Below, in pieces: positions 40,498 to 43,307 of a stretch of 43,791 nt of DNA. Position 1 is the first letter of the stretch; each line of letters starts with the position of its first letter. The notes beneath the pieces are model-generated. The model worked only from the letters and a program-made list of their open reading frames with translations. It did no database searches and was not told the DNA's origin. Position numbers and translations under genes: made by a program. Where the stretch lies: the NCBI GenBank assembly GCA_019058275.1, contig JAHLVW010000072.1, forward strand, positions 1-43,791, in the 5' to 3' direction. Source of the DNA: Candidatus Heimdallarchaeota archaeon. GTDB lineage: Archaea; Asgardarchaeota; Heimdallarchaeia; JABLTI01.

Positions 40498-41121
40498 CTA
40501 ATTAGTTGAAGAGACATCTATATTAGGTATTTCTTCATCTTTTTTCTCTTCCTTTTTAACATCAGAATAGATTGAACCTGCTACTTGCTTTGCAATATAA
40601 TAAGCCAATATTCCACCTAAATTTCCTGTCAATAATGCAAGTAATGAAATAAAGATAGTTGGTTCCAATTCTAATTGAAAAATAAGAAGAATTACTGATA
40701 ATGATCCAACAAAATTAGCAACAGCTCCTTCTATCATAGAGCAAATTACACTATCAGCTTGTGATCGGAATAGAAGGTTTATTAAATCAACTGCTAACCC
40801 GGGTAGTGAATAAGTTATGATTGTGAATATTCCATGAGAACCAAAAGGCAATATCATAACAACAAGTGCTTGTGTTAAACCAAACATGAAACCAGAACCA
40901 AATTTTGGAGATAATCGCTTTGTAAGCACTAACCAAAGCATATAGAAACCACCGACAATTGCTCCACCTGGAATTCCTAATGGTTGGCTTATAAGTGACA
41001 CAATCGGACGAATTATTTGTTTAGTACCTAGACCTAATGCTGCCATAATGGCGATTATTATTAAATCTGAAGTACTGTATCTCTTCAATTCTTCACTTTC
41101 GTTTGTTAGCTTATTTTTCAT
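40498..41121 (-). CDS. ECF transporter S-component (YkoE/Trep_Strep-like)
   Basis: About 6 TMs; helix 1 DLIIIAIMAAL with AxxxA; KFGSG; PGLAVD; SG/TG-rich last helix. Confidence 0.78.
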   Translation of the reverse strand: MKNKLTNESEELKRYSTSDLIIIAIMAALGLGTKQIIRPIVSLISQPLGIPGGAIVGGFYMLWLVLTKRLSPKFGSGFMFGLTQALVVMILPFGSHGIFTIITYSLPGLAVDLINLLFRSQADSVICSMIEGAVANFVGSLSVILLIFQLELEPTIFISLLALLTGNLGGILAYYIAKQVAGSIYSDVKKEEKKDEEIPNIDVSSTN

Positions 41122-41645
41122 ATTGTTTCATCAGCAATAATTCTTAGAGTTGCTACATATTTTACACAATATTGTCCATTAAATTCTCCAGGGAATCTCT
41201 GAGGGATTATCAATCTTAAAGGACCATTACCATCCTGTGAACCATCCTTTAGATATTCTCCATCTTTTTTATATGCAATAATAATATCTCGAGATTGATT
41301 GATTTCATCAAAACTTAGAGTATACACATAATTATCACTTGCAATGACCTTAACATCTACTTCATCTGTTCTATTAGCAATTTCAGTTACTAAATAGTAG
41401 ACTGAGACACCAATATAAGTTGCATAAAATGCTGGATTTCCATTGATATAATATTCTTGACTTACAAAAGGTAATGATTCTAATTCAGAAATTGTTATAT
41501 TATAATTCTCGGAGAGACCAGTAATTGTTAAATATCCTTCCGCTCCTTGTCTCGAAGGCTGCCAAACAGTGAAATATAAAGTAATGATTGCACCAACTAG
41601 GATTACATTAATCCCAATGACTAAAGCAAGAGTTTTTTTATTCAT
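41118..41645 (-). CDS. membrane-anchored sulfite-oxidase-fold (Oxidored_molyb) domain protein
   Basis: N-terminal KK + TM anchor; ELESLP, YIGV, ASDNY, IIIAYKKDG, GPLRLIIP, VKYV fit the molybdopterin-binding-domain consensus. Confidence 0.8.
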   Translation of the reverse strand: MNKKTLALVIGINVILVGAIITLYFTVWQPSRQGAEGYLTITGLSENYNITISELESLPFVSQEYYINGNPAFYATYIGVSVYYLVTEIANRTDEVDVKVIASDNYVYTLSFDEINQSRDIIIAYKKDGEYLKDGSQDGNGPLRLIIPQRFPGEFNGQYCVKYVATLRIIADETI

Positions 41646-42432
41646 TCTTTTTTTCCTTCTTAGATTTGTATGATATGTTTATTTCAACATTCGTGAGTTC
41701 CATTTCTTCAAGTTTTAATGTAGTAAGAACTCCTGTGATTACATTCTTGAATATGTCTTGTACAAAAACATTACAAGGAATAACATTATCATTTACCTTA
41801 AGTTGAACTTCTGAATTTTCATACCCAAGAATATAGCAATCTTCGACAGCTTTCTTCCCAGCTATAACTTCTTTCATTAATAAATCACAAGTGTCATAAC
41901 CACAATGTTTGCAATTTAACTCAGGGAATAAAGGTAAAGCTGTTTTTTCAGCTACATCTGCTAGGTTATCAAAATCCACAAAGAGCTTATGTCTACTTTT
42001 AATAGATAATTCAGGTATAGATGAAATTGCAACTGTATAATCACTAGTAAATTCTTTCTCTTGTCCTTCTTCTTTTAATAGAGTAATTTGAGGTAAACCT
42101 TTCAAATTTTCTTTGAAACCTTCAATTAAAACTATATCAAGATTCTTTCCAAGAATTTTTAGTGAATCACGAAGATTCATTTCGTCATTATAAAAAACAA
42201 CGGTTTCTTTATTAGACTTAAACATTGTAATTTTTGGTTTAGAATTTCTGTGTCTTATCACGTCATAATGCTCTTGGTTTACATCAATGCTTACATCTTT
42301 GAAAGCAACCTTAATAGTACCTACTCGTAAACCCTTTTCAGCTAATTTGGGTACAATAGTTTCTATTGTTGTTGTTTTGCCCGATTTTTTTAGTCCAGTA
42401 ATTCCAATAAATCTAGTTAACATTTCTTTCAC
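41638..42432 (-). CDS. mobB: molybdopterin-guanine dinucleotide biosynthesis protein B with Fe-S domain
   Basis: Walker A GLKKSGKTT, VGTIK, DIVLIEGFK; CKHCGYDTC...C Fe-S motif; C-terminal VND..IPCNVFVQ. Start could be ATG 42423. Confidence 0.85.
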   Translation of the reverse strand: MKEMLTRFIGITGLKKSGKTTTIETIVPKLAEKGLRVGTIKVAFKDVSIDVNQEHYDVIRHRNSKPKITMFKSNKETVVFYNDEMNLRDSLKILGKNLDIVLIEGFKENLKGLPQITLLKEEGQEKEFTSDYTVAISSIPELSIKSRHKLFVDFDNLADVAEKTALPLFPELNCKHCGYDTCDLLMKEVIAGKKAVEDCYILGYENSEVQLKVNDNVIPCNVFVQDIFKNVITGVLTTLKLEEMELTNVEINISYKSKKEKKNE

Positions 42433-42434
42433 AC

Positions 42435-43307
42435 CTAAGTATTATTTATCCAAAATCTACTAAAGAATAGTTTTAATTCTTCTCGGAATAAGTAACAAAT
42501 CCCTGCAATAGCAGCAAGGATAAGTATTGTGATGAAAACATCAATTATACTGAATTTTATTTTTCGATAATAGGTTCGTTTTTTATCAGTATTGAAAGCT
42601 CGAGACTCTAAAGCGATTGTTTGGTATTTTGATTTCTCTATAAAATTCATCAATATGGATGTGGCAAGGACACTAAAGCTTCTGATGCGTTTTATTATAG
42701 ATCCTCTATTAATACTAACTCCTCTGGTCTCTAAAGACATTCGCATTTCATTTGTTTCTGATACAACCATTGGTAGAAAATAGATAACTAAACCAGTAGT
42801 AAAAGCAAGCTCAAATGGCAAACCAATTTTTGTTAGTGATTGTAAATAATCATTAGAATTCGTTGTTAAACTGAAAAGACATGAGCCTATTGCTAGATTT
42901 ACTATACGTAAACAAGAGTTTGTTGCATTTATTAGAGATTCAATATTGATTGAAATTATGTGATTGTTTATTCCTACTAGATTAGTCAAAGGCCCAAATT
43001 CTACAAAAATATCAATGAAATCACCTGAGCTACTTGAAGCAAAAGCTAGTTGTATTACAAAAATAGAGGGCAATAACCACAGTGTAGGTTTAACATACCT
43101 GATAAATTGTCTATAATCAATTCTTGCAATTAAAGCGATAATTAGCATCGTACCAAAAAGAGATAACAGCAAGTACAAATCATTTATCAGAAATGATAAA
43201 AGTGAAACTGCAAGGAGCATCAATAGCTTTGTTCTTGGATCTAGAGTGAAATCTCTTTTCTTCAGTTTGCTTCTAGAGCTTTGAACAAAGGTCACTTTAT
43301 CATTCAT
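42435..43307 (-). CDS. ecfT: ECF transporter transmembrane component EcfT (second copy)
   Basis: LDPRTKL, FLP, coupling motifs SLETRG and ALESRAF, KRTYYR. Confidence 0.88.
   Translation of the reverse strand: MNDKVTFVQSSRSKLKKRDFTLDPRTKLLMLLAVSLLSFLINDLYLLLSLFGTMLIIALIARIDYRQFIRYVKPTLWLLPSIFVIQLAFASSSSGDFIDIFVEFGPLTNLVGINNHIISINIESLINATNSCLRIVNLAIGSCLFSLTTNSNDYLQSLTKIGLPFELAFTTGLVIYFLPMVVSETNEMRMSLETRGVSINRGSIIKRIRSFSVLATSILMNFIEKSKYQTIALESRAFNTDKKRTYYRKIKFSIIDVFITILILAAIAGICYLFREELKLFFSRFWINNT

Follow-up and report, generated by a model that had tools for sequence, protein, structure and literature searches.

The Operon and Its Genes

The 43,791-nucleotide contig JAHLVW010000072.1 of a Candidatus Heimdallarchaeota archaeon was analysed at its full length, which is called the window hereafter. 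It carries a four-gene operon in which parts of an energy-coupling factor (ECF) importer stand together with genes connected with the molybdenum and tungsten cofactors (Moco and Wco, respectively). The genes encode the coupling component EcfT, a MobB protein joined to an iron-sulfur domain (MobB-FeS), a membrane-anchored protein named OxM here and the substrate-capture component S (Table 1). The operon probably supplies the importer parts for the salvage of a preformed, molybdopterin-type cofactor of the Moco or Wco kind. Families, genera, genomes, contigs and loci are cited below by working numbers (f, g, G, C and L, respectively).

The four coupled reading frames claimed in a preliminary description of this DNA are all present, in one direction, at exactly the positions given there, and so are the 8-nucleotide overlap of mobB with the OxM gene and the 4-nucleotide ATGA overlap of the OxM and S genes. 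The 2-nucleotide gap between ecfT and mobB holds if MobB starts at the GTG at 42432; its relatives start at the codon corresponding to the ATG at 42423, which is likely to be the true start and would widen the gap to 11 nucleotides. Upstream of the operon, the TATA-like TTTAAAAA lies 19-26 nucleotides before the ATG of EcfT and is a probable promoter element of a transcript with a short leader or none. The sequencing runs listed for this stretch are of sediment metagenome DNA, with no RNA run among them. Neither this intergenic region nor any other part of the window has an Rfam match, and a scan of the window together with nine archaeal loci gave a single tRNA and nothing else.

Table 1. Genes and other features of the operon and of the second transporter module in the window (aa, amino acids; TM, transmembrane; SUOX, sulfite oxidase).
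Feature	Position	Strand	Length and basis
EcfT (transmembrane coupling component), first gene of the operon	42435..43307	-	290 aa; PF02361 CbiQ, 4.6e-27, 95.5 bits
MobB P-loop NTPase with four-cysteine FeS domain and C-terminal domain, cytoplasmic	41638..42432	-	264 aa; PF03205, TIGR00176, PF04060
OxM: N-terminal TM helix and extracytoplasmic PruR-like SUOX-fold domain, predicted to bind pterin	41118..41645	-	175 aa; PF00174, 24.7 bits, with AlphaFold2 and Foldseek
ECF S (substrate-capture) component of the PF09819 family, six TM helices	40498..41121	-	207 aa; PF09819, 44.8 bits
Divergent intergenic region with TATA-like TTTAAAAA at 43326-43333	43308..43524		direct sequence reading
ecfA1-ecfA2-ecfT module without an S gene	31225..33795	+	reading frames match EcfA, EcfA' and EcfT of dedicated modules, 100-250 bits

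At least 14 Heimdall loci have these four genes in unchanged order. Because these loci are also syntenic in their flanking genes and hence not independent of each other, the independent evidence of conservation comes from other lineages, and the gene set does recur in other phyla. Among the flanking genes, an Amidohydro_3 gene (38861-40489, plus strand) converges on the S gene with a gap of 8 nucleotides and is kept in all Heimdall relatives; it has no evident functional link to the operon.

The S Component, EcfT and the Supply of ATPases

The S component exceeds the cut-off of PF09819 (ABC_cobalt; cut-off 25.2 bits), and a hydropathy scan finds six hydrophobic segments in its 207 amino acids. 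Profile, size and topology as well as the association with EcfT and EcfA/EcfA' thus all place it among the PF09819 or YkoE-like ECF S components, and it shares 38-47% identity with bacterial S proteins. EcfT scores 74.7 against the cobalt-type CbiQ equivalog TIGR02454, which is below the cut-off of 111.8.

The entire genome has two T genes, both of them within the window, and two EcfA-EcfA' pairs. One pair belongs with the second T gene to the module 7 kb from the operon (Table 1), and the other is an orphan on contig C1, with no T or S gene nearby; relatives carry S, EcfA-EcfA' and T in one operon. Either pair is a candidate for driving the T and S components of the operon. On C1 (L110, 6907-9074), a stand-alone mobB (173 amino acids, plus strand) converges on the orphan pair (279 and 273 amino acids, minus strand) with an overlap of 12 nucleotides.

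OxM and Its Pairing with S

OxM reaches 24.7 bits with PF00174 (Oxidored_molyb), just above the cut-off of 24, and covers positions 67-163 of the 169 in the profile, that is, its second half, while genuine PF00174 members in Asgard archaea score 114-133 bits. Having neither the Mo-ligating cysteine nor a full Moco domain, it is not a member of the Moco enzymes of the sulfite oxidase family. Its AlphaFold2 model (pLDDT 76.7) matches first of all, in a Foldseek search, the PruR structures 7kom, 7kp2, 7kos, 7kou and 7rkb (E from 1e-7 to 1e-5; TM-score by target 0.65-0.75), followed by the Moco domains of sulfite oxidases and YedY, and a profile search of the PDB sequences also puts 7kom first. 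The invariant Gly69 of the OxM motif (Q/N)-G-N-P aligns, in a weak alignment, with Cys98, the Mo ligand of plant sulfite oxidase. A single N-terminal transmembrane helix with two lysines on the inner side gives an N-in/C-out topology, so the domain is predicted to face outward. According to its model, OxM is a PruR-like pterin binder lacking the Mo-ligating cysteine, which bears out the earlier assignment of a membrane-anchored protein with a molybdopterin-binding fold. The sole cysteine of OxM, Cys160 in the motif NGQYCVK, is invariant in all 23 of the aligned family members (23/23) and does not occupy the Mo-ligand position.

In the Asgard families f4, f5, f10 and f16, OxM is fused to S through a loop rich in lysine and arginine and a seventh transmembrane helix, giving proteins of 350-390 amino acids that are followed by a fused EcfA-EcfA' and EcfT. 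Such a fusion of OxM with S also occurs in a second archaeal phylum. Because this loop and this helix stand between S and OxM, OxM is placed outside the cell in the fusions as well, which agrees with the N-in/C-out anchor of the free-standing protein. Families f13 and f26 have the unfused order OxM, S, EcfA-EcfA', EcfT.

A predicted complex of S with OxM has a median ipSAE of 0.62 in three runs (0.61-0.63), compared with 0.00 for the best of three controls; a score this high is seen for 58 of 80 solved complexes and for 2 of 110 mismatched pairs. At least 83% of the contacts are common to the runs, and the pLDDT of the partners is at least 79. In the model, the transmembrane helix of OxM, with its invariant residues Asn13, Leu16, Tyr24 and Phe25, packs on residues 125-171 of S, and OxM residues 103 and 106 touch the loop at S residues 48-50 between the first and second transmembrane helices. 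The modelled complex supports binding of OxM to S; the natural fusions are the stronger argument.

PruR (Agrobacterium tumefaciens Atu3496 and homologues; 7kos, 7kou, 7kom, 7kp2 and 7rkb) has the SUOX fold, but its Mo-ligating cysteine is gone and its ligands are small pterins (PMC11194511, PMC13259868), as in the neopterin complex 7rkb. Like PruR, OxM is a small SUOX-fold domain standing alone outside the cytoplasm without the Mo-ligating cysteine, the position of which rests on the weak alignment mentioned above. However, PruR is a soluble signalling protein that is paired with the diguanylate cyclase DcpA in a pruR-dcpA operon and bears a Pro-Trp (PW) motif at the cysteine position, whereas OxM is anchored by a transmembrane helix or fused to S, has glycine at that position and an invariant Cys160, neighbours ECF genes and shares only 15-23% sequence identity with PruR.

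Since the closest solved structures are those of PruR, whose truncated pocket holds tetrahydromonapterin or neopterin, the importer might take up a small pterin other than Moco, such as neopterin, monapterin or a precursor of folate or methanopterin, and one bacterial locus (L106) does lie about 5 kb from folP and folB-folK. We consider this quite unlikely. The PW motif of PruR is replaced in OxM, with glycine at the Cys/Trp position, the S family is complementary to the Moco genes specifically, as described below, its partners are mobB, a MocA-like gene, moaC, moeA and the Moco/Wco riboswitch, and import of a small pterin would leave the S-positive genomes without a source of the AOR cofactor.

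The MobB-FeS Protein

The preliminary description had placed a Moco-maturation gene between the T and S genes, and this identification holds: the MobB domain scores 78.3 bits with PF03205 (cut-off 26.6) and 86.7 bits with TIGR00176 (cut-off 76.2), its Walker A motif G..GKT is intact and invariant (Gly13, Gly18, Lys19 and Thr20), and it is fused to an FeS domain with four cysteines (PF04060, 35.8 bits). The cysteine motif and the C-terminal domain are common to this protein and the MobB proteins of two riboswitch-controlled bacterial operons (L106 and L109). Escherichia coli MobB and the archaeal MobB/FeS fusions of the NCBIfam PRK14494 group are the known proteins to compare, the P-loop MobB domain and the PF04060 FeS domain being shared. 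Unlike these, the protein of the window scores 135.8 with the PRK14494 equivalogs, far under their cut-off of 323, and its gene belongs to a transporter operon of a genome that appears to lack a MobA/MoeA pathway to assist. A tblastn search of this genome with the MocA-like protein of locus L015 gave no match, no dedicated MobA-profile search having been made; the cofactor of AOR needs no nucleotide. As mobB lies inside the operon in the genus of the window, in f5 and in at least five genomes of the second archaeal phylum, its presence within the transporter operon is a feature conserved across phyla and not an accident of one genus.

Operon Variants and Accessory Proteins in Archaea

Archaeal relatives often have accessory genes upstream which encode surface proteins with one N-terminal anchor each and further OxM domains. 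Among these, four f10 loci and the second phylum have fusions of a calcineurin-like phosphoesterase (Metallophos) with OxM, and another operon type has fusions of a PF01663 nucleotide pyrophosphatase/phosphodiesterase with OxM. Two unrelated phosphoesterase folds are therefore found fused to OxM domains. The second operon type, found in five or more genomes of a different archaeal phylum, has the order S, multi-OxM protein, MobB, PF01663-OxM, OxM, EcfA-EcfA', EcfT; its S protein is the closest archaeal relative of the window S outside Heimdall, and one such locus (L015) ends with a gene for a MocA-like Moco nucleotidyltransferase. In genome G186 of family f13, which has both the S family and Moco genes, an S-EcfA-EcfA'-T module adjoins moaC and two moeA genes (contig C8; L080, 9748-13036).

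Several further OxM-related genes were observed. In a Heimdall relative (L014, 4137-5582) the OxM gene is extended to 481 amino acids by an N-terminal LVIVD beta-propeller, and a second OxM paralogue lies upstream of ecfT in L003, L007-L010 and L014. The source genome itself has an unlinked OxM paralogue on contig C54 (L076, 3114-3692) and, also unlinked to the transporter, a homologue of the PF01663 phosphodiesterases of 385 amino acids on contig C98 (L112, 4119-5276, minus strand), which is a remote relative of those encoded in the operons of other lineages. Other OxM-like proteins were rejected as parts of the system. Those of 350 amino acids in f13 are genuine PF00174 enzymes accompanied by cytochrome b561/DUF4079 (MsrPQ-like), those of 200 amino acids in f19 and L018 are likewise genuine PF00174 proteins, and the matches in L017 and L019 have no S gene nearby, the genome of L017 having moaC in addition.

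Bacterial Homologues and the Moco Riboswitch

A full-library search with the S protein of the window gave 254 relatives, and seven bacterial representatives with an S identity of 40-44% were traced to their contigs. Their operons comprise S, OxM proteins, often a PF01663 phosphodiesterase, EcfA, EcfA', EcfT and MobB. Directly upstream of five of the seven (L104, L105, L106, L108 and L109) lies the Moco/Wco riboswitch RF01055, with 61-80 bits compared with a gathering score of 36; it is absent from the window and the archaeal loci scanned, as expected for archaea. The smallest riboswitch operon (L109) consists of the riboswitch, S, OxM, A, A', T, MobB and a protein of 204 amino acids, that is, the gene set of the window with the ATPases and this protein added; the latter has no Pfam match. 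Thus, the linkage of the S family to Mo genes, the loss of which would have spoken against the preliminary description, is conserved across phyla and extends to mobB, a MocA-like nucleotidyltransferase, moaC and moeA, and the Moco/Wco riboswitch.

Two bacterial loci carry other surface proteins. In L105 (12430-14352), of Gram-negative type, the riboswitch-controlled operon has a gene for a TonB-dependent receptor with a Plug domain between its ecfA' and ecfT genes, and an LVIVD protein is encoded after it. In L102 (4772-7500), of Firmicute type, a fusion of FMN_bind with OxM (523 amino acids), a Fer4_5-FMN_bind membrane protein (386 amino acids) and an SLH-anchored OxM protein of 1319 amino acids are encoded upstream of S; together they may hold the pterin in its reduced state outside the cytoplasm, as a redox module.

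Cofactor Users without a Pathway

The preliminary description had suggested checking whether the genome lacks moaA, moaC and moaE and yet has Mo or W enzymes, and this proved to be the case. Whole-genome searches found no MoaC, MoaE or MoeA and no MoaA by its C-terminal domain, while nine matches to AFOR_N correspond to eight or nine AOR genes. Searches by tblastn with MoeA and with the bacterial 204-amino-acid operon protein gave no match either. The single protein with a MoCF domain (PF00994) was rejected as MoaB/MogA since it is CinA/NMN-deamidase-like. Moreover, no SBP_bac_11 protein, that is, no binding protein of ModA or WtpA type, was found in this genome, and the only PBP_like_2 protein was rejected as a TupA-type binder since it is PstS, adjoining PstC.

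The lack of ModA, WtpA and TupA could mean that tungstate or molybdate is what the operon itself brings in, in the manner of an ECF metal transporter with extra components. Such importers exist: CbiMNQO and NikMNQO(K/L) have an S unit needing extra small membrane or extracytoplasmic components and a T component of the CbiQ family, as here, and the Moco riboswitch often controls mod and tup operons. Nevertheless, metal import is very improbable here. The window S is not CbiM or NikM, its T is under the CbiQ equivalog cut-off and the accessory domain has a pterin-binding and not an oxyanion-binding fold. In addition, S-positive genomes have neither molybdopterin synthesis nor MoeA and could make no use of the metal alone, and the fusion of OxM with surface phosphodiesterases suggests that the cargo is organic and bears phosphate.

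Phyletic Pattern

In an even sample of 201 Asgard genomes, in which the S family was defined by at least 80 bits against profile A2, AOR is present in 197 genomes, the S family in 78, MoaC in 91 and MoeA in 96, the last two nearly always in the same genomes. The S family occurs together with MoaC in 3 genomes, compared with 35 expected, and with MoeA in 4, compared with 37 expected. Since kinship inflates any p-value for the exclusion of S and moaC, the alternation within genera is more telling than these counts: in at least nine genera (g6, g19, g22, g26, g39, g44, g50, g52 and g54) the S state and the moaC state are found in different species of one genus. Of the S-positive genomes in which moaC and moeA are both missing, about 24 have a listed completeness of 95% or more. 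The pattern recurs in the second archaeal phylum (141 genomes), where MoaC is present in 72 genomes overall and in none of the 11 S-positive ones, compared with 5.6 expected, and AOR is present in all five S-positive genomes tested.

MobB is kept in 180 of the 201 Asgard genomes, including families without moaC and moeA (21/21 in f2 and 19/19 in f16), which suggests a role downstream of cofactor acquisition and not in the synthesis of molybdopterin guanine dinucleotide (MGD).

ThiC served as the control. Its presence follows lineage (40/40 in f13, 0/43 in f10), without any complementarity to the S family. This bears on the possibility of an ordinary YkoE-type importer of thiamine or hydroxymethylpyrimidine (HMP) in which the link to Mo genes is coincidental. 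The S component shares its Pfam family, small architecture with six transmembrane helices and partners EcfT and EcfA/EcfA' with the ECF vitamin importers, especially YkoEDC, and databases label relatives as 'ABC-type thiamin/hydroxymethylpyrimidine transport system permease'. Furthermore, the bacterial relatives are repressed through a riboswitch for the end-product cofactor, as ThiT and YkoE are by the riboswitch for thiamine pyrophosphate (TPP). Unlike YkoEDC, however, the systems of the window type have Moco genes and not thi genes as partners, and in the fusion families S forms one protein with a pterin-binding fold. No TPP riboswitch occurs in any locus scanned, the Moco/Wco riboswitch in five. 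The coincidence is therefore extremely improbable, and a known vitamin of the thiamine/HMP kind as the ligand of S, which had been named as a refutation of the preliminary description, finds no support.

The distribution of MoeA bears in turn on the possibility that the cargo is molybdopterin without metal, or an earlier intermediate such as cyclic pyranopterin monophosphate (cPMP), from which the cofactor would be finished in the cell. MoeA is kept beside the operon in some carriers (L106, G087 and G186), cPMP is chemically more stable than Moco, and control by the riboswitch fits equally. Import of such a precursor is unlikely all the same: MoeA is missing in the source genome and in nearly all S-positive Asgard genomes (present in 4/78), and the source genome, without MoaE and MoaB/MogA, could carry out neither the sulfuration of cPMP nor the insertion of the metal and has no recognisable tungstate or molybdate binding protein.

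Proposed Cargo and Mechanism

The cargo in this organism is most likely a metal-loaded pterin because its genome lacks MoaE, MoeA and an oxyanion binding protein, although for this more specific claim, W- or Mo-loaded pterin and nothing else, we see an even chance. In the mechanism proposed for import of the ready-made cofactor, OxM, anchored in the membrane and facing outward, would sit on S, capture the pterin moiety of the external cofactor and pass the cargo to S. S and EcfT, together with an EcfA-EcfA' pair encoded elsewhere, would then import it at the expense of ATP, and MobB-FeS in the cytoplasm would receive the cofactor or escort it to the eight or nine apo-AOR enzymes. In relatives, the surface phosphodiesterases would trim the dinucleotide forms (MGD and molybdopterin cytosine dinucleotide, MCD) or remove a phosphate. 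The preliminary description had proposed that external Moco, Wco or a precursor is captured, imported and handed over to MobB; its uptake part is supported by the evidence above, while the role of MobB as acceptor, like the identity of the cargo and the hand-over from OxM to S, is what we infer.

Several points weigh against salvage of the finished cofactor. The operon has no ATPase gene, and the source genome is a metagenome-assembled genome of Heimdall type (4.12 Mb, 92.8% complete, 6.8% contamination). Free Moco is chemically labile. As the Moco riboswitch also controls molybdate and tungstate transporters, its control alone cannot separate cofactor uptake from metal uptake. Three or four genomes have both the S family and moaC or moeA, so the match is strong but not absolute, and 28 of the 201 Asgard genomes, mostly of family f2, have neither system. 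Finally, the pocket of PruR is truncated and was held too small for Moco by its authors (PMC11194511); because OxM is about the size of PruR, it may, by analogy, hold the pterin end only, or a smaller pterin.

Family f2 has AORs but no moeA, no S family and, in 19 of 21 genomes, no moaC. Two of its loci encode a protein of 335-339 amino acids with an OxM-like N-terminal part (L078, 7706-8713, and L079, 6913-7932, both minus strand), which adjoins two ABC half-transporters of 605-641 amino acids (L078, 3881-7544; L079, 3012-6760). This set may serve to take up the same cofactor in another way.

Relation to Known Systems and Significance

It is a textbook view that the Mo/W cofactor is too labile for exchange and that each user cell makes its own, and we know of no prokaryotic transporter for it. 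The operon described here is the best candidate for a prokaryotic uptake route of the ready-made cofactor. A description of an ECF or other prokaryotic Moco importer was not found in the literature searched, the coverage of which is incomplete and gives no proof of absence. The nematode Caenorhabditis elegans lives on external, probably protein-bound, dietary Moco (PMC7849362, PMC9793310), but this is a eukaryote in which no transporter has been identified, whereas the present gene set singles out a particular transporter candidate in prokaryotes.

The machinery can be recognised as an ECF importer; what sets it apart is its cargo class, its obligatory surface binding domain and its built-in MobB, features for which the literature searched gave no precedent. 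Classical ECF importers have no binding protein, while systems of the OxM type have an obligatory extracytoplasmic binding domain that is fused to S or anchored beside it. Furthermore, unlike in ECF vitamin importers, surface phosphodiesterases and a cytoplasmic MobB belong to the operon, and in the source genome the ATPases are encoded elsewhere. To this picture the window contributes the split architecture, a complementarity test across the phylum with a negative control, its replicate in a second phylum and the link to the riboswitch, which was reached from an archaeal S protein.

In its widest form the proposal is that at least 75 of the 201 sampled Asgard genomes and many anaerobic bacteria are auxotrophs for W/Mo-pterin that take up the completed metal-pterin by an ECF system devoted to it, with surface pterin-binding domains, surface phosphodiesterases that trim dinucleotides and MobB as the cytoplasmic acceptor, a proposal that in our judgement could go either way. 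Because the gene set is defined, has a clear phyletic signature and is under riboswitch control in tractable bacteria, the question of cofactor uptake is directly testable. If the proposal is true, Moco and Wco are a traded 'vitamin' in anoxic communities and MobB, which has had no clear function for decades, gains the function it has long been missing. It would explain why MobB is kept in genomes without the pathway, how about half of the Asgard genomes run many AOR enzymes without a pathway for their cofactor and, in part, why Asgard archaea are metabolically dependent on their partners.

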